The notes beneath the pieces were generated by a model. The model ran no database searches, was not told where the DNA came from, and saw only the letters and a program-made list of their open reading frames with translations. DNA of 64,000 nucleotides from contig CAZLGP010000055.1 of assembly GCA_964558905.1 (NCBI GenBank), positions 10,650 to 74,649 on the forward strand, given 5' to 3'. Below are positions 36,292 to 46,094 of the stretch, piece after piece (the first letter of the stretch is position 1; every line of letters begins with the position of its first letter). The position numbers and the translations under genes are program-made. Source of the DNA: an uncultured Thermoanaerobaculia bacterium. Lineage in GTDB: Bacteria > Acidobacteriota > Thermoanaerobaculia > Gp7-AA8.

Positions 36292-37506
36292 TCAGTGGCC
36301 GGGTCTTTCCACCTCGGGTCGGCGCCGCTCCCGCGGTTCGCCCTGCAGCTCCATCAGCTCGAGACTGAGCGGCCAGGCGCCATCCGGGCGGACCAGGTAC
36401 AGGTGGCCGTCGCGCTCTTCCAGACTGGAACCACCGGGCAGGGGCAGCTGATGCTCCGTCTCGCCCAACGCCATCCAGACACGGCCCTGGTGGAACCGCA
36501 GCGTTGGCTTGGTCGGCAGTGCGCTCCGTTCGGCCGGCTCGCTGTTGACCGACGGGCCGCTTGCGTAGTGACCGTGGCAGTAGAACGGGTCGTAGGTCGG
36601 CGGCCAGTACGTCGCATACGTGGAGCCGTAGCTGCTCGTCGTCCGCACGACAACGGTCCCGTCACAGTACCGGTCTTCGTAAGTTTGCGTGTCCTGGTAG
36701 AACACCCAATAGACGTCATGTCGGTAGGAGAACTGACAGTAGGAGTAGGCGTAGCTTGCCGAGAGGACCGTCCTCGTCGATCCGAGATAGGTCGTGGTGA
36801 AGTTGGCGGTGTCACAGGCATCGCCGATCCCGTCACCGTCACAATCCGCCTGATCGGGATTGTAGGTGTAAACGCAGTTGTCGGAGGCGTCCGAGATCCC
36901 GTCGCCGTCCGAATCGCTGCTGCCCTGGCAGTCGTTCAGACATTGGTAGTACTCGTTCTCGCAGGAATCGCAGATCAGGACTGTCTCGCAACCGGGGGTG
37001 TTCTGATAACACCATTGGCGATTGAGCTCGCAACCTCCGGCACAAGTGGTCGTGGCGGCCGGGCGGGCGCGTGTTGGGCCGGTCGGTGCGGGAGCACCCG
37101 CCTCGAGGCCGAACGTGGCCGCGTCGGAGCGCGGTCGCGCGATGGCGGGATTCGGAGCCGCGAGCCGGTCGCTGTACGCGAAGAACTCCGCCAGGGAGAA
37201 AGTGCCCAGCGTGTGCCTATCGCGCGACACGCGCACCGTGGCGGTGCGATCGCTGCTCGCCAGCCGCGCCAGCCGCGCCTTTCTGACCGGATCGTGCTGG
37301 AGGAACTCGAAGGTTCCGCCGCCGGCGTTCCGGCGGAGCTCGAGGACGTCTTCGACGAAGAGGCGATCGTCGACTCGAATCTCCAGGCGGAGCTCGGACG
37401 GATCGGACCCGTCGGGAAGTGAATAGAGCAGCCGAGGCGCTTGGGGCGCCGCAGCGACCGTTCCAGCGAGAAGCAGACCGACTACAAGCGCAGAAAATCG
37501 TCGCAT
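36292..37506 (-). CDS. secreted protein with thrombospondin type-3-like calcium-binding repeats
   Basis: Signal peptide. SDSDGDGISDASDNCVYTYNPDQADCDGDGIGDACD repeats. Cys-rich. Confidence 0.6.
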   Translation of the reverse strand: MRRFSALVVGLLLAGTVAAAPQAPRLLYSLPDGSDPSELRLEIRVDDRLFVEDVLELRRNAGGGTFEFLQHDPVRKARLARLASSDRTATVRVSRDRHTLGTFSLAEFFAYSDRLAAPNPAIARPRSDAATFGLEAGAPAPTGPTRARPAATTTCAGGCELNRQWCYQNTPGCETVLICDSCENEYYQCLNDCQGSSDSDGDGISDASDNCVYTYNPDQADCDGDGIGDACDTANFTTTYLGSTRTVLSASYAYSYCQFSYRHDVYWVFYQDTQTYEDRYCDGTVVVRTTSSYGSTYATYWPPTYDPFYCHGHYASGPSVNSEPAERSALPTKPTLRFHQGRVWMALGETEHQLPLPGGSSLEERDGHLYLVRPDGAWPLSLELMELQGEPRERRRPEVERPGH

Positions 37507-37869: not shown

Positions 37870-38037
37870 AGGGTAGCCGGTGGCGAGCGCCAATGCGCCG
37901 CCACCGGAAACGTGGGCAACCGCGAAGGATCCGCCCCGGAGGGGCGGCAGAGAACCTCTCCCGCCCCTCCGGGGCGGATTTCCTGCACGCCGTCTTCTTC
38001 CGGTGGCGGCGCTCCGCGCTCGCCACCGGCTACCCTC
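37870..38037. repeat. element with 20-bp perfect terminal inverted repeats (GGGTAGCCGGTGGCGAGCGC)
   Basis: 37872-37891 versus 38016-38035. Inner palindromes CCGCCCCGGAGGGGCGG and CCGCCCCTCCGGGGCGG. Confidence 0.7.
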
Positions 38038-38152
38038 TGAGCGGCCGGCTGCAGGTGACCGGGTGAGCGAAAGGCGACTCTGCCGCCGGCTACGCGAGGC
38101 TGATCCCCGGGACCGATCGACGGCGCTATACCTGACGTATACTGCCGTTCGG

Positions 38153-38386
38153 GTGCGAACGACCGAATACTTCGAGAAGAGAATCCGGGATCGCGGCATC
38201 GAACGAGCGTGGTGTGAGTGGACCGTCGACCACCCCATCGCAACGGAATTGCAGGATGACGGCCGCGTCAGGTACTGGGCCTACGTCGAAGAGGCGCAGC
38301 ACTTCCTGAGGGTCGTCACAGAGGCCGACGGCACCTTGTTGAACGCATTCTTCGACCGGACGTTCGAGCGCAGGAGATCGAAATGA
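38153..38386 (+). CDS. DUF4258-family toxin (RelE/ParE-superfamily RNase-like) of a type II toxin-antitoxin pair
   Basis: GTG start at 38153 (VRTTEYFEKRIRDRGIERAW...). 78 aa. Stop overlaps the antitoxin start (ATGA). Confidence 0.5.
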   Translation: MRTTEYFEKRIRDRGIERAWCEWTVDHPIATELQDDGRVRYWAYVEEAQHFLRVVTEADGTLLNAFFDRTFERRRSK

Positions 38387-38976
38387 AATACTTCTACGAC
38401 CGCAGCAGCGACTCGCTCTACCTGTCCCTCGACGAGCGGCGGGCATACCGAGATTCCGTCGAAGCCGCACCCGGTGTGGTCCTCGATTTCGACAAAGCGG
38501 GCCGGCTCCTCGGTATCGATCTGGAGCGCGCAAGCCGCATCATCGACGTGTCCGACCTCGAGCTTCACGAAGAGCCGTCGCGCGCCGCCGCCGAGGCCGC
38601 CCAGTTGGACGGCAGTAAGCTCCGACGGAAGCGTGAAGAGCTCGGCCTCAGCCAGGTCGAACTGGGTCGCCGGCTGTCCGTCAGCCCCAATACTGTCGCA
38701 CGATGGGAGCGCGGCGAACTGAGAATCGAGCACCCGGGTATGTTGGATCTCGCGTTGTCCTCACTCCGCCCGCGCGCCGTTGCGGCGCAGGTTTCGTCCT
38801 CGATGGCCGTTGAGCGCAAGAAAGGTCACTCTCCTCGTGATCGCAAGTCATCCGTTCACACAACGCGGGTTGAAGCCATCGAACACGGTCGTGCGAGCGC
38901 TCGGAGCACCGCGCATCTCAATGCGAGCCCGAAAGGAAAACAAGCCTCCGAGACGGGACGAGCGAGGAAGAAGTAG
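38383..38976 (+). CDS. DUF2283 antitoxin fused to an XRE-family HTH domain
   Basis: MKYFYDRSSDSLYLSL...VVLDFDKAGRLLGIDLE is the DUF2283 signature. Followed by LSQVELGRRLSVSPNTVARWERGE. Confidence 0.6.
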   Translation: MKYFYDRSSDSLYLSLDERRAYRDSVEAAPGVVLDFDKAGRLLGIDLERASRIIDVSDLELHEEPSRAAAEAAQLDGSKLRRKREELGLSQVELGRRLSVSPNTVARWERGELRIEHPGMLDLALSSLRPRAVAAQVSSSMAVERKKGHSPRDRKSSVHTTRVEAIEHGRASARSTAHLNASPKGKQASETGRARKK

Positions 38977-39083
38977 GCTCTCGCCGCGAGCGACGACCAA
39001 CGGTCTGACCCGTCAACCGGTCCCGGAGGGCGACCACTCGAATGGCAGGACGAGGACTTGCCGAAGAGCTTCCGTGGGAACCG

Positions 39084-39380
39084 TCATTCGAACGCGACGC
39101 TCCAGTCGTCAGTCATCGCAATCTCGGCGAGGCACTGCATGCAGCCGAATCGACGATTGGTGCCACCCTCCCACTCGATTCGATCGCGAGACGCATCGGC
39201 GACGGCAATCAACGCGACATCACTCCCGCGGCGGACCGTAAATGGCCAAGACCGAGTGAAGTCCTCGAGCAGACGGAAAGGACTCGTATCGTTCAGCTGC
39301 CATGCTCCGTCCGACTCGCCCCGATTACCGCAGCGCGGGCAAGTCAAGCCGCTTTGGTCTACAGAAACATCGACATCCAT
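39084..39380 (-). CDS. small zinc-ribbon protein (98 aa; CPRCG...GCMQC)
   Basis: GAGGTGAGG RBS upstream of ATG 39380. Four Cys in two CxxC pairs. Divergent from the two-gene operon. Confidence 0.4.
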   Translation of the reverse strand: MDVDVSVDQSGLTCPRCGNRGESDGAWQLNDTSPFRLLEDFTRSWPFTVRRGSDVALIAVADASRDRIEWEGGTNRRFGCMQCLAEIAMTDDWSVAFE

Positions 39381-39496
39381 CCCTCACCTCGCTCCGAGGC
39401 TACCTCGGTGAACGCGGATGATTGGAATCTCGCTACGCTTCGTAGATGGCGGCATCAGCTTGACGCCTTCGTGCCTTCCAGTGAACATGCACACGC

Positions 39497-40336
39497 ATGC
39501 ATGGGCCTGGCATCCTCGCGCGGACACTCTCAACGCCGACGCCCAAGGGGAAAGGCGCCGCGTGGCAGTATCACCCTCGGAGTGATCACCACTCGAAAGT
39601 CGCGTGCTGGGGGATTCTTTTCGATCTCCTGCAAAGTTCGGCACTGATTCGGGAGCACGTCACATCGGGAAGCCTCGCCTTCGGCATCAATCACGAAATG
39701 CGGGACTTCCGAACGGGGAGAAAGAAGGATCTCGATCTCGTTTTGGCAAAGCCGGCTGCCGGTTCAAACATCAAACCATTGACGTTTCGCATGCTCGCGA
39801 CCAAGTGGGCCATCGACCTGAACGAGTCCGAACGAGAAATTCTCGAACGGCTTCCGAACCTAGTCGAGCGTCGGGTTGGCGTGGTCCATCTCGCACTCGA
39901 GGCCAAGGCTTGCATGACGGAACACATGAAGGCCCGTCCGCGACTCTACGACGAGTTGAACTCGAGCCATGATGCCGTTCACGGTTCTGCCGAGATGGCG
40001 ATCGCGGCCGGTTTCGTCATGATCAACATCGCCGCCGACTTCATCTCGCCGGAGATGAACAAGTTCGGCGGCGCACTTCACGTCACGAAGCACGACCAGC
40101 CTCGCGTCACGGAGAAGGTGATCGAGAAGGTGCTCGAGATCCCGCGCCGCGCGACGACTTCGACCTCCGGATTCGACGCACTTTCGATCGTTCTGGTCGA
40201 TTGTCGCAACGACGGTCAAACTGCCGTACGCATCGTCGCGGACCCGCCGGCACCGAGACCTGGAGAGTCCGTCCACTACGCGGCCATGATCCAACGCATC
40301 GTGCAGCTCTACGAGTCGAGGTTCCCGCACACTTGA
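39497..40336 (+). CDS. uncharacterised protein with a canonical PD-(D/E)xK nuclease motif (candidate restriction endonuclease subunit A)
   Basis: KKDLDLVLAKP...VVHLALEAKACM gives D-x(37)-E-A-K. 279 aa. Start could be the internal ATG at 39698. Confidence 0.5.
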   Translation: MHGPGILARTLSTPTPKGKGAAWQYHPRSDHHSKVACWGILFDLLQSSALIREHVTSGSLAFGINHEMRDFRTGRKKDLDLVLAKPAAGSNIKPLTFRMLATKWAIDLNESEREILERLPNLVERRVGVVHLALEAKACMTEHMKARPRLYDELNSSHDAVHGSAEMAIAAGFVMINIAADFISPEMNKFGGALHVTKHDQPRVTEKVIEKVLEIPRRATTSTSGFDALSIVLVDCRNDGQTAVRIVADPPAPRPGESVHYAAMIQRIVQLYESRFPHT

Positions 40337-41154
40337 AAAGGCACGTCAGGACGAACGCCTTCGAGCTGGCCGATGCGCTAAAGCGGGCGAAGCGTCCTCA
40401 CCCACCGGCATCGGGACCGGAAAAGAAGTGGTCCAAAGACGCGCGGAAGGACTGGACGGATGAGAAGCGCGCCTACTCCGAACGCCTCTCCAAAGAGTTC
40501 TCGAAGGCGATCGAGCAGAGCTTCCGCTCACACTTTCCGCAGACCCGCTCCGGTGAAGGGCTCGGAACGAATGCGGCGAGCGCACAGGGCATCAAGAGCG
40601 TCGATGTGGCCTTCAACATCGAAGGGCTGTTCCTCGGCCTGGGCGTCAGTGTGAAGGCGATCGGAATCCCCGAGGGGAAGAGTGGGTACGCGCACAATTT
40701 CAAGCGGATCACCGAGGAGTGGACCACCGAGACGGTGCTGTACCACCGCTACATGCCCGTCTCGATCATCGTCGGAATCTTCTTCATGCCGTGGGACTCG
40801 GTCGAAGACCGCTCGACGGTGACATCGCTGAGTTACGCGGTAGCGAAGTTTCAGGGGTTCCAAGGACGCCAATCGATCCGTGAGGATTTCGAGCTCATGG
40901 AGCGCATTTATGTTGGGCTATTCAAACCCGACGGCGCAGTGCAATTCCTCGACGTCGGTAAAGGCCAACTCGGCCCACGCGAAACTCCGCAGGCCGATCG
41001 TCTCCAGACTTTCGAGCAGGTGAAGGACGGTCTCGTACGCTTGTTCCGCCTTCGAAATCCGAAGCTGCGTGTCCGCGGAATGCCGGATCTCGATCGCGCC
41101 GGCCACGTCATCGCACCGATTCCAGAGCTCGACGAAGCCTTCGAAGACGACTGA
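40333..41154 (+). CDS. uncharacterised protein, translationally coupled partner (candidate subunit B with a degenerate D...SxK motif)
   Basis: TTG at 40333 overlaps the upstream TGA (TTGA). SVDVAF...GLGVSVKAIG sits at the equivalent position, followed by a hydrophobic strand SIIVGIFFMPWD that parallels FVMINIAADF of gene A. Confidence 0.45.
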   Translation: MKRHVRTNAFELADALKRAKRPHPPASGPEKKWSKDARKDWTDEKRAYSERLSKEFSKAIEQSFRSHFPQTRSGEGLGTNAASAQGIKSVDVAFNIEGLFLGLGVSVKAIGIPEGKSGYAHNFKRITEEWTTETVLYHRYMPVSIIVGIFFMPWDSVEDRSTVTSLSYAVAKFQGFQGRQSIREDFELMERIYVGLFKPDGAVQFLDVGKGQLGPRETPQADRLQTFEQVKDGLVRLFRLRNPKLRVRGMPDLDRAGHVIAPIPELDEAFEDD

Positions 41155-41557
41155 CGTCCTCGCACTCGCACTCCCAGATCACCAGCACTTTCCATCCGAG
41201 CTCGCGTAACTGCCCCTGCACGCGTTCGTCACGCCGGACGTTCGCGGCGAACTTGTCCAGCCAGAACTGCCGATTGCGCGATGGCGTGGTCGTGCGCGGA
41301 CAGCCCTCATGCCGGTGCCAGAAGCAACCATGAACGAAGACTGCCCATCTTCGTGTGCGGTTTGCGACGTCCGGTGATCCTGGGAGATCGCGGTTGTGAA
41401 CTCGGAAGCGATGGCCAAGCGCGTGTAGAAATCGGCGCACGGTCACCTCGGCCGAGGTTCCATGCTGGCGGATGCGCCCAAGCCTCTGGGAGGTCGCAGG
41501 ATCTACGACGAGCTCGGGCTTCGACTGGCCTGCGTGACTTCGCGGCGGGCGAGGCAC
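41108..41557 (-). CDS. vsr: very short patch repair endonuclease
   Basis: TSAEVTVRRFLHALGHRFRV...FVHGCFWHRHEGC...GWKVLVIWECE. Confidence 0.9.
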   Translation of the reverse strand: MPRPPRSHAGQSKPELVVDPATSQRLGRIRQHGTSAEVTVRRFLHALGHRFRVHNRDLPGSPDVANRTRRWAVFVHGCFWHRHEGCPRTTTPSRNRQFWLDKFAANVRRDERVQGQLRELGWKVLVIWECECEDVSRLRRLRRALESVR

Positions 41558-41560
41558 GCC

Positions 41561-42841
41561 TCAGATGATCGCACGCAAGGAATCGCCGCGCATCCGCGCG
41601 AGATGCTCTTCGAGCGCCTCGAGAAATCCGGCAGGGAACCGCAGCTTCGCGCGGTAGGCACGGGACAGAAAACCTGCGGTCGCCTTTGCGGAAAGTGGCT
41701 CGGTGTCGAACTGAAGAAAGGCTTGCAGCGGAGTCGCTGCCACGCGAACAGGCCACTTCGAAACGGCTGCCGCGAACCTGATACCGTCGACGTTGTACGC
41801 CGCCGTCGGCCAGGCCACGGCCGTGCCCAGCGGCGCGTCGCCGACGGCGTCGTATTCGGCGGGAGCGCGCAGTCTTCGCCCGATCCACTCGGCCGCGTTC
41901 ACCGTTACGGCGTTGCCCACGAGCTTCCAGCGTGCGCCCCGCTTGACGACGGATTCCGCCGGCAGCGTCCAATCGGCCTCGAAGCCCTGCATCCTCTCGG
42001 CATCACGCAGGTCCGGCTTCACGACGTTTCCGTTCGGAAGAATGATCGCAGGCGGAGAGGGGATGCCGATGGTAGAGCCCCCCTTGAGTGTCGGAACCGA
42101 GTCGACGGCCCATCCCAGGCCCCGAAGCCCCTCCGTCCAGAAGAACCCGCACGCCACCTCACGAAAGGATCGTCGGTCCTCGGGCTCCGCAGCATCGTCG
42201 ACCAGCAGAACGGAACGCGGGTCGTGCAACCGCGAGGCGAGAATGTAGACCCTCTCGCGGCGCTGTGGCACACCGAACGCGCGGCTGTTGACGACGCGGT
42301 ACGCCCACTTGTAGCCGAGTCTCTCGAACTCGCTGAAGATCAGGTCGAGCGCCCGCCCCCCTCCCAACTGGAGCATGAACGAAACGTTTTCCAGCAGAAC
42401 CCACTCGACGCGCTTGCGGTCCAGGAGACGGAACACCTCACCGACGAGACCGGAGCGCGCTCCACTGATTCCGGCCGTCTTCCCGGCCTGGCTGAGATCC
42501 TGACAGGGAAAGCCCGCCGCCAGCAGGTCCGTCTCCTTCGGGAGCGACCGCAATTGGCGAACGTCGTTGGCCCGCCTCACGGCCGGAAAGCGCGCATCGA
42601 GGACCGCGTTCGCGGCGCGGTCGAACTCGCAAAGGAGTGAGGCCTCATGACCGGCCTGCGACAAGCCGAGCTCGATGCCACCAATGCCAGCGAAGAGACC
42701 GACCGCCGAAAGGCCTGGGAGGGTTACGTCGGTCTTGGGCGCCGCGGAGCGCTTCGCTCCAACGAGCCGCAACTGAGAACGTCCTCCACTCATGATGACG
42801 GCCCCCAGTCTACCTCGGCGCCGCCCAACCTGCGGCGCCAT
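41561..42841 (-). CDS. dcm: DNA (cytosine-5)-methyltransferase
   Basis: Motif I LFAGIGG. Motif IV GFPCQDLSQAG. ENV and QRRERVYIL motifs. Lies immediately upstream of vsr. Confidence 0.9.
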   Translation of the reverse strand: MAPQVGRRRGRLGAVIMSGGRSQLRLVGAKRSAAPKTDVTLPGLSAVGLFAGIGGIELGLSQAGHEASLLCEFDRAANAVLDARFPAVRRANDVRQLRSLPKETDLLAAGFPCQDLSQAGKTAGISGARSGLVGEVFRLLDRKRVEWVLLENVSFMLQLGGGRALDLIFSEFERLGYKWAYRVVNSRAFGVPQRRERVYILASRLHDPRSVLLVDDAAEPEDRRSFREVACGFFWTEGLRGLGWAVDSVPTLKGGSTIGIPSPPAIILPNGNVVKPDLRDAERMQGFEADWTLPAESVVKRGARWKLVGNAVTVNAAEWIGRRLRAPAEYDAVGDAPLGTAVAWPTAAYNVDGIRFAAAVSKWPVRVAATPLQAFLQFDTEPLSAKATAGFLSRAYRAKLRFPAGFLEALEEHLARMRGDSLRAII

Positions 42842-42959
42842 CTCACGACCCGATGGAAACGTGTAACAGCCGCAGGCGAAAAGCTACACACAGTAGATCA
42901 CTCGCACCGCAGGGACGCAGAACGCAGTCGAAGATCTCGCGCCACGCCGGCCAGTCGGA

Positions 42960-43352
42960 GTGGAGAATGCGAAGACCTGCCCCCAAGTGGTCGCGGGCGT
43001 GGCGCCGGCGGTGCGACCGACGGGGCGGATGCACGACCGCGCACGACGCGTCCTCCTCCGCCAAAACACCGCGGCTGACTTCCCGTCGACAAACGAAAAG
43101 CGAAGGTGTGACCCCGGGGAAACGTGGCAACCCGGACAACGCTACATCCACCACGCGAGCCGCGGCTCCAACGTGATGCTCTTCGTCCGCTCGTCGAACA
43201 AGGACGCCTACGGTCGAACCCCGGCCTTCACCTTCCTCGGCCCAGCGTCGTATCAAAGCCACGCCGGCGAGCGTCCGACGGCCATCGTGTGGAAACTCCA
43301 CCGCCCGATGCCGCTGGACGTGCTCGGCGTGGCGCGGGTCGCGGCGGGGTAA
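42960..43352 (+). pseudogene. possible remnant of the C-terminal domain of a larger protein
   Basis: NVMLFVRSSNKDAYGRTPAFTFLGPASYQSHAGERPTAIVWKLHRPMP looks like a conserved domain; a DUF3427-like helicase C-terminus is a guess only. Upstream residues are low-complexity. Confidence 0.2.
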
Positions 43353-43389
43353 CCCGAAGCCCCCGGACTCTTAGGGATAGAATCTCCAA

Positions 43390-43962
43390 ATGTCCTCGTC
43401 AGATGAGCGCTGGATTCGGCGTGCCGTCCTGCAACAGATTGACACGGAGCACGGGCGTGCCGGCGACACGGTAGTGAAAGAGGAATTTGTGGTTCGCCAC
43501 GGAGCGGCGCGAGTTGACATCGCGGTCTTCAACGGTCGAATGGAGGCCGTCGAGATCAAGAGCGATAACGACACTCTGCGCCGGCTGCCCGGCCAGATCG
43601 AGATGTTCGCTAGCGTTTTCGATACCTTGACGTTGGCTTGTGGCCTTCGTTACTCAGAAACCCTACTCCGCGACGCACCTACGTGGTGTGGAGTAATCGA
43701 ACTCTCGGAACGAGGTCAACGAGCACTCCGTTCTGCCGACCAGAGTCCGCTCCAGGAGCCGCGCCACATGGTCAAGCTTCTTCACAGATCAGAAACTCTC
43801 AACGCACTTCAGGCTCTTGGCGTTCGACCAAGACCCTCAGCCAAGCGTCGTGATCTCTACGAGGAACTGTTGCGCACCGTGGATCTCACGCGCCTCAGAC
43901 GAATCGTACTAACCACGATCAAGCTGCGAGTTGGAGGGGCACAAACACCATATGGTGGTTAA
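43390..43962 (+). CDS. sce7726-family protein
   Basis: RVDIAVFNGRMEAVEIKSDNDTLRRLPGQIEMFASVFD matches the remembered sce7726 signature (EIKSD.D.L.RL..Q). 190 aa. Confidence 0.55.
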   Translation: MSSSDERWIRRAVLQQIDTEHGRAGDTVVKEEFVVRHGAARVDIAVFNGRMEAVEIKSDNDTLRRLPGQIEMFASVFDTLTLACGLRYSETLLRDAPTWCGVIELSERGQRALRSADQSPLQEPRHMVKLLHRSETLNALQALGVRPRPSAKRRDLYEELLRTVDLTRLRRIVLTTIKLRVGGAQTPYGG

Positions 43963-44926
43963 TCCCCGCCCGCAGCCAAGTCTGCGCCGAGCCGGTCTTT
44001 CTCGCCTCTCTAGACATGGTGTCGATGTATCTGTCACCAGCAGAGAAGCCAGCGCCACAATACTCTTTGCGAAGACTGAGCATGCGTGCTTGGGCCGGGT
44101 ACTGCTTGAAGCCCTCCCCCTCGTCGTTGAAAACACCCTCTCCGCGCATGACGACGAAGTCACGCTTGTGGGTGTACCTAATTGAAGCGCTGAAGTTGGC
44201 GTTTGGTGGCGCCTCTCTGAAGTCAGCCGTCACCACAGTGTAGTCACCGTACGAAGTTGGGGCTTCGATGCCGCGGCGCTCGATTGATTCCCACGCCAAC
44301 CATTCGTTACGCGGAAGGAGGTACTGGTTGTTTTTCGGGAGACCAGACAGATCGATTGGGAATGAGCCACCCATGATGGTCGCCGATGCCCATCGCGCGT
44401 TCTTCGCAAGAAGCTCTGCAGTTCCCTGCATGCGAGTTCCATCAATCATCGAGCCGAAGTCGAGGAGGACATCAAGGTTGGCGGGGGTTCGTCCGAGTCG
44501 TTCGAGAGTTCGACCGACCTCCTGCAGGAGACGAGTCGATACGAGATCCGCGCTACTGATTCGGATCGATGCGGCGTTAGCACCATCACTCCGCATCCAC
44601 GCGCATAGTTCGTCAAAGAATGCAGACGTGTACAGCGGAAAGACCACATACGGAAGCGCGCCAGCTTCCTTGAGCCGTACGATCACATCGATCGCCGTGT
44701 GGACACGCCAGGAACTATCGACTCGCAAAAAATCCAGAAAGAATGGACGCTTGACACCCCAAGACCCGACCATCGATTTAACTACTTCTCCAGCTGACAT
44801 CAATCGCGATGGAACGAGTTCGAGCAACGGCTTCATGCGAGCTCGCTGCTCGCGAGTCAGCTGCGCGAGAGCGCACTGTTCGGCGACCTTCCAACGCAAC
44901 ACAGGTGTATACATAGTATTAATCAT
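43919..44926 (-). CDS. sce7725-family (beta-family) protein
   Basis: N-terminus MYTPVLRWKVAEQCALAQL matches MYxPxLRxKxxExxAL of sce7725 proteins. 335 aa. Its 3' end overlaps the sce7726 gene by 44 bp, convergent. Confidence 0.55.
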   Translation of the reverse strand: MINTMYTPVLRWKVAEQCALAQLTREQRARMKPLLELVPSRLMSAGEVVKSMVGSWGVKRPFFLDFLRVDSSWRVHTAIDVIVRLKEAGALPYVVFPLYTSAFFDELCAWMRSDGANAASIRISSADLVSTRLLQEVGRTLERLGRTPANLDVLLDFGSMIDGTRMQGTAELLAKNARWASATIMGGSFPIDLSGLPKNNQYLLPRNEWLAWESIERRGIEAPTSYGDYTVVTADFREAPPNANFSASIRYTHKRDFVVMRGEGVFNDEGEGFKQYPAQARMLSLRKEYCGAGFSAGDRYIDTMSREARKTGSAQTWLRAGINHHMVFVPLQLAA

Positions 44927-46094
44927 CCCAACTGACCTCCGGAAATAAGCGCCTGACCTCGCCTTGACCTAGCATGTTTCCTAGTACGCGATACGATCCG
45001 CTCTCATAACGAACTCGCCCTGCAACAATCGCCGGATGAATTCGGAGTTCTCTCGCTAGCAACTCCGCCGCCTGGGGAGAACGAAGGCTGCTGGCGGGAC
45101 TGCGACGCCAAGCGGAGGCAGGGATGAGACGTTCTCTCGCCAATTCATCGGCTTGCCTTTCGCTTTCGTCTGTGGCCGATGTCTCGAGATCATCAACAAA
45201 CACTTGTCGTGCCTTACCGGCCGCGACTATCAAGTGCGCCATTTCATGCGCCAGAGTGAACCAGAACGAATCGATGCGATCGAAACGCAAGGTGAGGCCA
45301 ATTACTGACAGATTCCCGTCTGCTATCGCCACTCCGTCTAGATGGGTCTTCGGCAGTGGCGGCTCAATTACGACCGGTACTCCGTGACGACGCAGGAACT
45401 CTACGGCCAACCTCGGTCCTGCGTCCGCCCAGCTCAACTTAATGGTCTCGCGAAGCAAGTCATCCAAATTACCATCGATACCCGGCGAAGATCGGGCCAT
45501 CGTCTTACCTACGTGGTAGACGCGCGCCGTCCACGCGACAATCGCCTCCTTATCCACCCCGGTCGAACGAGACGTCCGTCTGAACGCGGCTGCGCCACTA
45601 AGTCGGACCACTGGCTCAACATATACGCGGACCGCCTCGGCAGCGTGCGTGTCGAGCCAACCCCGCCGCGCGATTAGAGTAGCCATTCCACCTTTCGTAT
45701 ACTTGACCTTTGCGCGAGACTGAACCTCGTTGTTTGTAATGAGAGCATCCGCGGGAATACCAAGGCCCTCGTTCAACGCTCGGATCATGGAGAGGCTGAG
45801 GCCACGCTTTCCTGAAAGGACCTCCGATACGCGGCTCGGAGAACCTAAGAACTTAACCAAGTCGCGTGGCGAAAGACCCTGTTGCTCCATTCGAAAGCGA
45901 ATCGCCTCAACGGCTGATGCAGGTTCGTGAGGTGGCAAGTGCCGGCGCTCGTAATCCTCGATTAACAGCGTGAGAAGTCGTATGCGGTTACGTGTTGCGT
46001 CGTCACGCGGCACCTCCTTCCCGAGGAGACCTTCCAGCTCATCAAGTGCGGCAGTGTAAGCCTCTGGTGTGTCAAGAATGCCGAACGTGTCCAT
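44919..46094 (-). CDS. HigA-like HTH antitoxin fused to an ImmA/IrrE (M78) metallopeptidase domain
   Basis: XRE HTH (LSPRDLVKFLGSPSRVSEVLSGKRGLS) and HEMAHL zinc motif. Directly downstream of higB. Confidence 0.75.
   Translation of the reverse strand: MDTFGILDTPEAYTAALDELEGLLGKEVPRDDATRNRIRLLTLLIEDYERRHLPPHEPASAVEAIRFRMEQQGLSPRDLVKFLGSPSRVSEVLSGKRGLSLSMIRALNEGLGIPADALITNNEVQSRAKVKYTKGGMATLIARRGWLDTHAAEAVRVYVEPVVRLSGAAAFRRTSRSTGVDKEAIVAWTARVYHVGKTMARSSPGIDGNLDDLLRETIKLSWADAGPRLAVEFLRRHGVPVVIEPPLPKTHLDGVAIADGNLSVIGLTLRFDRIDSFWFTLAHEMAHLIVAAGKARQVFVDDLETSATDESERQADELARERLIPASAWRRSPASSLRSPQAAELLARELRIHPAIVAGRVRYESGSYRVLGNMLGQGEVRRLFPEVSWDD

Follow-up and report, generated by a model that had tools for sequence, protein, structure and literature searches.

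Among Type II restriction-modification systems, HpaII, NaeI and XorII are examples in which a C5 methylase is accompanied by a Vsr gene. The heterodimeric restriction enzymes BbvCI and Bpu10I consist of subunits that are homologous to each other, always occur as a pair and are combined with two methylases. For the Vsr components of restriction-modification systems the prefix 'V.' has been defined (PMC4081073). We analysed a locus within a stretch of 64,000 nucleotides (the window), where a Dcm-type methylase gene and a Vsr gene lie beside two genes of nuclease type, A and B. Our analysis identifies the locus as a predicted Type II restriction-modification system of the ordinary kind plus a second, unrelated nuclease gene. 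Such a make-up with two nucleases is unusual.

Layout of the locus

The features of the locus are compiled in Table 1. The TTGA overlap of the two central genes, their nuclease-type motifs, the neighbouring genes and the divergent 98-aa gene at a distance of 116 bp were all present as described in the first-pass annotation of this DNA. Because A and B each have many conserved homologues, these features are not a product of chance. At the junction of A and B, CACTTGAAAAGG, the TTG start of B (40333-40335) overlaps the TGA stop of A (40334-40336), so that the genes share 4 nt; a GAGG is located 11 nt upstream of the TTG. The TTG start of B is supported by its homologues, which begin at the same aligned position. 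At its other end, B overlaps the 3' end of the Vsr gene on the opposite strand by 47 nt.

Table 1. Features of the restriction-modification locus in window coordinates
Feature	Position	Strand	Description
Zinc-ribbon protein	39084-39380	-	98-aa ORF; Cys4 (CxxC...CxxC)
Divergent intergenic spacer, zinc-ribbon gene / gene A	39381-39496		116 bp
Gene A	39497-40336	+	279 aa; predicted Type II restriction endonuclease, PD-(D/E)XK
Gene B	40333-41154	+	273 aa, TTG start; second predicted PD-(D/E)XK-fold restriction endonuclease
Vsr	41108-41557	-	very-short-patch repair endonuclease; Pfam, NCBIfam, PADLOC
Dcm-type C5-cytosine DNA methyltransferase	41561-42841	-	Pfam, NCBIfam, PADLOC

The assignments of Vsr and Dcm were straightforward. 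Vsr matched Pfam PF03852 (1.2e-21), TIGR00632 (1.1e-34) and the PADLOC model Vsr, where only the 149-aa reading of the gene extends over the N-terminal section of this model. Dcm matched PF00145 (5.4e-49), TIGR00675 and the PADLOC model MTase_II PDLC03324 with 481 bits. The length of Dcm is 403-426 aa; the gene caller yielded 403 aa in L001, and the true start may be downstream of 42841.

A gene with DUF2283 and HTH_3 matches (Pfam) lies upstream of the cluster, and toxin-antitoxin and defence-like genes form a small island around the locus. The GC content of 0.59-0.63 over 39000-41500 was indeed lower than the 0.65-0.69 of most of the upstream flank, as had been noted before.

The divergent gene had been suggested as the regulator of the system. 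The encoded protein reached zinc-ribbon models of Pfam only below threshold, and no HTH or other DNA-binding domain was matched in Pfam. A search of 5.8 billion proteins returned only the query itself. Translated homologues with 30-41% identity flank the same cluster only in three further loci (L083, L087 and L088), and they share the pattern CPxCGN..G.W..N..PF.L.E and a second CMxC. We regard the gene as a real, occasional accessory gene. A regulatory role is unsupported because the gene occurs in just 4 of about 100 loci. The 116-bp spacer showed no operator-like repeats; the sole repeat found is an imperfect palindrome at 39486-39509, which overlaps the start codon of A. On these grounds, i.e. 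no HTH, rare occurrence and no operator repeat, we also rejected the gene as a controller (C-protein). A sigma-70-like promoter was not found in 38900-43400; the organism may not use a sigma-70-type consensus.

Gene A and the Dcm methylase

A contains the motif strings KKDLDLVL and ALEAKAC, and its D80, E135 and K137 were invariant in an alignment of 32 homologues. Thus the D...EAK nuclease motif of the first-pass annotation is present, although its spacing is D-x54-E-x-K and not D-x37. The AF2 model of A was confident and matched restriction endonucleases in fold comparison. Neither A nor B had a match in the Pfam, NCBIfam or PADLOC models or among PDB sequences, in single-sequence as well as in profile searches. 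The A family is large, with about 2,947 protein clusters and 350 matches among 185,579 species genomes, and extends over Acidobacteriota, Planctomycetota, Myxococcota, Alphaproteobacteria and Actinomycetota. Every named homologue is labelled 'hypothetical protein'.

The gene neighbourhood of A was evaluated in the best 80 of the 350 genome loci. An orthologous Dcm gene was found within 3 kb of A in 74 of these 80, joined by Vsr in 62, and the A-Dcm-Vsr clusters occur in at least six gene orders. In two loci (L020 and L042) A adjoins an N6_N4 methylase, and Vsr is missing. This amounts to synteny with a methylase in 76 of the 80 loci, the other four being not assessable as three end at or just past A and one contig begins with A. 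The Dcm orthologues found with A or B elsewhere are 49-73% identical to Dcm of the window. Because of the synteny with the methylase, A is the predicted cognate nuclease of the adjacent Dcm. The earlier proposal that the pair of genes contains the restriction enzyme of the Dcm methylase thus fits A.

An approach to the recognition site by palindrome avoidance (Markov observed/expected; 93 host loci, 1.23 Mb) did not yield a GC-rich palindrome that stood out. The specificities of the A and B families are probably GC-rich. ScmA of Caulobacter methylates YGCCGGCR (PMC12907096). A link to ScmA was rejected, as ScmA has 335 aa and its neighbour CCNA_01084 411 aa, compared with 403-426 aa for Dcm and 279 aa for A.

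Gene B and its genomic contexts

B contains the strings SVDVAF and GVSVK, and its D91, S106 and K108 were invariant in 30 close homologues. Among 61 distant relatives D91 was again invariant, and S106 and K108 were kept at 90% or more; N122, E129 and E133 are also conserved over 61 diverse members. According to the AF2 model of B, which matched restriction endonucleases in fold comparison, E129 and E133 sit on the helix after the SxK strand. A Pfam scan of the 61 diverse relatives gave no match. The SxK had been interpreted as a degenerate active site. This was not borne out, as both the SxK and the two helix glutamates hardly vary within the B superfamily. Judged by this conservation, D91...S106-x-K108 is the regular site of the B family and not a decayed one; presumably its SxK with helix glutamates resembles the active-site variant of Cfr10I and NgoMIV.

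The B family, with 237 clusters at 50% identity, is rarer than the A family. Close relatives of B were accompanied by Vsr in 13 of 13 metagenome loci and by an orthologous Dcm in 12 of the 13, the exception (L089) being short. The position of B is variable, with the orders A>B><Vsr, B><A and Vsr>B. B and Vsr are convergent and overlap in the window and in L083-88; two of these, the short contigs L087 and L088, have the order ZnR<>B><Vsr, with A absent from them. Vsr precedes B in L089 and L102, and in L090-95 B converges on A and adjoins A, not Vsr. In 12 of the 12 other loci that hold the two genes, neither A nor B has lost a catalytic residue, so both are maintained.

More distant B-like genes were adjacent to Dcm, an N6 methylase or Vsr in six of seven contexts with readable flanks; in the seventh, L098, none of these was annotated beside the gene. 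B-like follows directly on an N6-adenine methylase without Vsr in three loci, and on Mycobacterium and Pseudonocardia plasmids the gene of the N6 methylase overlaps that of B-like. Other arrangements are Dcm>B-like with no Vsr between them, Dcm>x>Vsr>B-like, and Dcm followed by a Vsr::B-like fusion; two assemblies encode this fusion protein. Over 374 aligned residues, the variable region included, the Dcm adjacent to the fusion and that of the window share 62% identity. Next to an orthologous Dcm/Vsr pair or immediately downstream of an N6 methylase in other genomes, a B-like gene was the one nuclease candidate that could be seen. In Anaeromyxobacter oryzae, Dcm-Vsr-B-like is followed by a C-terminal fragment of Dcm (aa 270-405), then by Vsr and, in convergent orientation, by A; by its gene content this locus looks like a visible merger of two systems.

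Both A and B have a recognised PD-(D/E)XK motif and fold, and linkage to a methylase is conserved for A (76 of the best 80 loci) as well as for the B family. From this we infer that both are active nucleases. The claim of a restriction module therefore held, on the strength of the methylase synteny of A and the restriction-endonuclease folds of A and B. The alternative offered with it, an independent new defence system, was not supported.

Relation of the two nucleases and comparison with known systems

Taken together, we consider it likely that the locus is a Dcm/Vsr/A system with B added as a second nuclease. The Dcm-type methylase would methylate cytosine at C5 within its recognition sequence, Vsr would repair T:G mismatches arising from deamination of 5-methylcytosine at this site, and A would cut its unmethylated copies. 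B would be a second restriction endonuclease stacked onto A, Vsr and Dcm and translationally coupled to A; in other genomes a B-family gene may be the sole nuclease of such systems. The single methylase presumably protects against both enzymes. Because B is exclusively associated with this Dcm orthologue group, we infer that it recognises the site of A and Dcm; A and B would each act as homo-oligomers. In a literature search, no relevant precedent came up for two independent nucleases that depend on a single methylase.

The first-pass annotation had suggested a paralogous heterodimer of A and B. If A and B together formed one heteromeric restriction enzyme, in which the site of B was degenerate or auxiliary, the 4-nt overlap and the co-orientation in the window and the gap of only 3 nt between A and B in L018 would fit, because they also suit proteins acting together. 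Yet such an enzyme is improbable. Alignment of the A and B families by hhalign found no similarity (probability 0.3%, E = 0.2), and in the B family the SxK is the rule, not a product of decay. The genes are also not always syntenic. Of the best 80 of 350 genome loci, 78 contain A but no B, and the other 2 have a B-like gene as well. Conversely, B-family genes stand beside methylases without A in the available sequence of plasmid loci (L099 and L100) and of L087, L088 and L096, where, as in L083, the contigs are short and an A gene just beyond the contig end is possible. Where B converges on A (L090-95) the two are not co-transcribed. Finally, known Type IIT heterodimers recognise asymmetric sites (PMC4081073), whereas this cluster has one methylase only. 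A lack of A/B synteny elsewhere had been set in advance as an outcome that speaks against the pair, and it is what the loci displayed. By their sequences and their separate occurrence, A and B are independent of each other and would not make up a new enzyme of two parts.

The frequent contact of B-family genes with Vsr, seen in the window, L083-88, L089, L102 and the Vsr::B-like fusion, might indicate that B works with Vsr or in another repair process related to 5-methylcytosine, or that it is a modification-dependent nuclease. We think this unlikely, since B-like genes directly follow an N6-adenine methylase without Vsr in three loci, follow Dcm with no Vsr between them, or, in L090-95, abut A. 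Moreover, a methylase followed by a gene of nuclease fold is the standard layout of a restriction-modification operon, and a modification-dependent B beside its own methylase would be self-toxic. B could also be a restriction enzyme of other specificity, protected by a methylase elsewhere in the genome and carried as a passenger of the defence island. The small island in which the locus lies agrees with such a passenger, and so do residues of the putative recognition helix, which differ between the clade of the window B and distant B-like proteins, e.g. T127 instead of the consensus D. Against it, the close relatives of B keep Vsr in 13 of 13 and the same Dcm group in 12 of 13 loci despite varied gene orders and divergent A, and the genes examined between 37.9 and 46.4 kb of the window included no second methylase; a passenger is very unlikely.

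For the stacking of B onto the Dcm/Vsr/A system, a tentative explanation is that B-family genes are mobile restriction genes without a methylase of their own, which have settled again and again in resident systems of matching specificity. It would account for the four or more insertion geometries around the same Dcm group and for the merged locus of Anaeromyxobacter. If so, a stable system would exist whose single methylase serves two unrelated nucleases; it might resist anti-restriction proteins of phages, or stabilise the locus by doubled post-segregational killing. The locus and its relatives clearly illustrate how non-homologous nucleases are exchanged and stacked within a single methylase lineage, with a merger intermediate kept in one relative. 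Since Pfam, NCBIfam and PADLOC lack a model for family A, pipelines based on such models would probably score the many Dcm-Vsr pairs beside A as orphan methylases, although complete restriction-modification systems are likely there; this annotation gap also concerns the smaller B family. A and B represent two new candidate families of restriction endonucleases. The general understanding of restriction-modification is unchanged by this locus.

Among described enzymes, the cA3-activated nuclease NucC of CBASS and type III CRISPR systems is only 7-9% identical. We rejected a NucC-like effector, as none of the examined loci showed a cyclase or CRISPR gene adjoining A or B, and the gene that constantly goes with them encodes a DNA methylase. 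In the CCGG-family with its alpha-class PD-(D/E)XK fold (NgoMIV, Cfr10I, Bse634I, SgrAI, AgeI, PspGI) structural identity was only 7-14%; sequence or profile similarity to A and B was not found, though all six named structures are in the PDB. The spacing from lysine to glutamate is 21 or 25 residues in B and about 14 in NgoMIV, the R-x-D-R recognition motif of this family is not evident here, and A has a canonical E-x-K. Unlike BbvCI and Bpu10I, A and B are non-homologous, are found separately and have one methylase in the cluster; a Type IIT heterodimer was rejected for lack of constant co-occurrence (B-like in 2 of the best 80 A loci) and of homology between the subunits (0.3%). The locus is most like the Type II systems with a C5 methylase and Vsr, with which it shares the tight methylase/Vsr operon, the PD-(D/E)XK nuclease gene beside it and synteny across phyla. 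It differs from them in that neither A nor B matches any model of Pfam, NCBIfam or PADLOC or any sequence of the PDB, and in that two unrelated nuclease genes share one methylase.

Layout of the cluster and its island

The ORF coordinates confirmed the two nuclease-candidate genes A and B and the divergent 98-aa zinc-ribbon gene as described in the first-pass annotation, and Pfam, NCBIfam and PADLOC agreed on the adjacent very-short-patch repair endonuclease (Vsr) and Dcm-type methylase (Dcm). The TTG start of B (40333-40335) overlaps the TGA stop of A (40334-40336) in the sequence ...CACTTGAAAAGG, with a GAGG 11 nt upstream of the TTG. The 3' ends of B and Vsr, on opposite strands, share 47 nt (41108-41154). 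B ends in an acidic tail of about 20 aa with low pLDDT, which is shared only by homologues about 256-274 aa long. Four of these were placed in loci with a convergent B/Vsr overlap; shorter homologues (about 230-240 aa) terminate at GMP. The lower GC of the region was borne out, with 0.59-0.63 over 39.0-41.5 kb versus 0.65-0.69 for most of the flank upstream.

Features of the window and of the compared loci (L-numbers, L001 containing the cluster of the window)
Feature	Position	Strand	Description
404-aa ORF	36292-37506		island boundary
DUF2283+HTH_3 fusion gene	38383-38976	+	overlaps upstream ORF (region 37880-38976)
Zinc-ribbon ORF	39084-39380	-	98 aa, CxxC...CxxC
Gene A	39497-40336	+	279 aa
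Gene B	40333-41154	+	273 aa, TTG start
Vsr	41108-41557	-	Pfam, NCBIfam, PADLOC
C5 methylase	41561-42841	-	Pfam, NCBIfam, PADLOC
130-aa ORF	42960-43352	+	divergent from Dcm
190-aa protein	43390-43962	+	
Beta_protein + ImmA-like pair	43919-46094	-	PF14350, 335 aa; HTH_3 + Peptidase_M78 (ImmA/IrrE-like), 391 aa
HigB toxin gene	L001 8084-8368		
N6/N4 methylase	L020 8808-9713	-	Methyloceanibacter MAG
N6/N4 methylase	L042 8853-9779	-	alphaproteobacterial MAG
Fusion P0244	L096 2674-4020; L097 1165-2511		448 aa, N-terminal Vsr + C-terminal B-like nuclease; same ORF in both assemblies
Composite locus L007	AP025591.1 8001-12473		Anaeromyxobacter oryzae; A, Vsr, Dcm fragment, B-like, second Vsr, full Dcm
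B-like gene, L098	CP136011.1 4974-5795		Pseudomonas sp. FeN3W megaplasmid, 31% identity

The cluster belongs to an island spanning about 8.5 kb, bounded on one side by a 404-aa ORF that matches nothing in Pfam and on the other by a gene for class II ribonucleotide reductase; no tRNA gene was found in the 64-kb window. Upstream of the cluster, the DUF2283+HTH_3 gene overlaps by 4 nt the stop of an ORF that had no Pfam match in its longest reading, and the label of a toxin-antitoxin pair is plausible for the two. Downstream, the Beta_protein gene overlaps the ImmA-like gene and HigB follows; because the GC of this region (0.53-0.58) is below that of the restriction-modification cluster, it looks like a separate acquired module. 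The 190-aa protein carries PF26915 (Phage_P4_cII) in the precomputed annotation, and a Pfam scan at E <= 0.001 matched no family. The 130-aa ORF weakly resembles the C-terminal end of DUF3427 (E = 1.4e-4, sub-threshold) and is possibly what remains of a gene.

Sequence comparison shows the zinc-ribbon gene to be real and conserved, with CPxCGN...W..N..PF.L.E and a second CMxC common to its homologues (30-41% identity). The proposed role as a regulator was not upheld. The gene occurred in four loci only (the window, L083, L087 and L088), on either side of the cluster, a Pfam scan of the protein found no HTH, and the spacer to A held no operator-like repeat and no consensus promoter.

Gene A and its methylase

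Neither A nor B matched Pfam, NCBIfam, PADLOC or PDB sequences in single-sequence and family-profile searches, in line with the earlier failure to name a family for either. A search at E <= 0.001 gave 2,947 homologues of A; all those with a source name were labelled 'hypothetical protein'. The nuclease motif reported for A is present, its spacing being D80-x54-E135-x-K137 instead of D-x37, the sole factual slip of the first-pass annotation. D80, E135 and K137 were invariant in 32 homologues, as were WQYH.R.D.HS and LYDELNSSH among other blocks.

Scanning one genome for each species yielded 350 A loci in Acidobacteriota (Thermoanaerobaculia), Planctomycetota, Myxococcota, Alphaproteobacteria and Actinomycetota. 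In 74 of the best 80 of these 350, A had within 3 kb a Dcm orthologous to that of the window (49-71% identity), and Vsr was also present in 62. Gene orders in the best 80 (M, methylase; V, Vsr; arrows, direction) were A>< V< M (38), A>< M (10), M>A>V (9) and V>M>A (5), plus others. Two loci, L020 and L042, lack Dcm and Vsr and carry a PF01555 N6/N4 methylase convergent on A, which is a methylase swap on the A nuclease lineage. Among the other four loci without Dcm, three contigs stop at or just past A and one (L070) begins with A. A nuclease motif with a DNA methylase of either chemistry as the one constant neighbour is the hallmark of Type II restriction endonucleases. On this evidence A is the putative cognate enzyme of the Dcm/Vsr pair, a role that had been suggested as one option for A and B together.

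Similarity of the window's Dcm to M.HhaI and M.HaeIII is confined to the catalytic N-terminal half. Palindrome avoidance in 93 host loci (1.23 Mb) gave no signal for the recognition sequence, and Caulobacter ScmA (YGCCGGCR) as a specificity lead was ruled out on gene sizes.

Gene B and its relation to A

A word-indexed search found 79 B homologues, and an exhaustive profile search extended the family to 237 clusters at 50% identity; none of 61 diverse relatives had a Pfam match. Across these 61, D91 was invariant and S106, K108, N122, E129, E133 and H138 were each at least 90% conserved. Thus SxK is the normal state of the B family and not a degenerate site. In the structural model the SxK strand (101-109) precedes a helix (120-140) bearing E129 and E133; we take this topology to correspond to the Cfr10I/NgoMIV variant, where the glutamate of the motif gives way to one on a helix. 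B is a candidate second, independent restriction endonuclease family.

The first-pass annotation had suggested that A and B would fit a paralogous heterodimer with one degenerate active site. Apart from the failed premise of degeneracy, this reading fails on homology, with an hhalign probability of 0.3% between the family alignments, and on co-occurrence. A B-like gene was found in only 2 of the best 80 of 350 A loci (L007 and L018), superfamily HMM search included, and the contigs of L087 and L088 carry ZnR<>B><Vsr<Dcm (ZnR, zinc-ribbon gene) and no A. Close B relatives occurred in 13 metagenome loci, of which all contain Vsr and 12 contain the window's Dcm orthologue group (53-73% identity); the one without, L089, is a short contig. 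The window's own arrangement, A>B><Vsr<Dcm, recurs in L084-86, whereas L090-95 have B><A<Vsr<Dcm and L089 has A>Vsr>B. Identities to the window's proteins were 77% for A and 61-63% for B in one group, and 51% and 58-60% in another; they do not track each other, which indicates separate histories of the two genes. The catalytic residues of both nucleases were intact in 12/12 other loci carrying A and B. A and B may interact in the window's particular lineage, where the genes overlap by 4 nt; in L018 they are 3 nt apart.

B-like genes beside methylases and the reading of the locus

In several further loci a distant B-like gene directly follows a methylase and is the sole nuclease candidate there. 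One case is a Mycobacterium marseillense plasmid, where the B-like gene and an Eco57I-type N6 methylase overlap, and on two Pseudonocardia plasmids the overlapping gene is annotated as N-6 DNA methylase. The orders Dcm>B-like and, in a mobile-element-like context, Dcm>x>Vsr>B-like were also found. In two assemblies a Vsr::B-like fusion directly follows a Dcm with 62% identity to that of the window over 374 aligned residues, variable region included. In Anaeromyxobacter oryzae, Dcm-Vsr-B-like is followed by a C-terminal Dcm fragment (aa 270-405), Vsr and a convergent A, which looks like a merger of two systems of the same methylase lineage with one methylase truncated. Next to this locus lie further defence-like genes, among them an MmeI-like methylase/nuclease and an SNF2 helicase. 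The B-like gene of L098, in a region flanked by IS elements, has no annotated methylase beside it in the incomplete PLSDB gene table, and its neighbours of 242, 379 and 181 aa had no Pfam match; it could be a lone copy or one in decay.

That B often adjoins Vsr, and that the fusion exists, suggested a Vsr-accessory role, against which stand the B-like genes paired with N6 methylases without Vsr. We favor a restriction function for B. Because the close B clade was found only with the window's Dcm orthologue group, B most probably shares the recognition site of A and Dcm and relies on the same methylase. The probable reading of the locus is a Dcm/Vsr/A Type II system with a B-type nuclease stacked on top.

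Taken together, the locus is a Type II restriction-modification system with two candidate nuclease families unmodelled by Pfam, NCBIfam and PADLOC. Of the first-pass annotation, the observation and the reading as a restriction module stand, with A as the probable cognate enzyme of Dcm, and the heterodimer does not. The findings matter mainly for annotation, as a source of two candidate new restriction enzymes and as a clear case of nuclease swapping and stacking. The unusual feature of the locus would be one methylase common to two nucleases.
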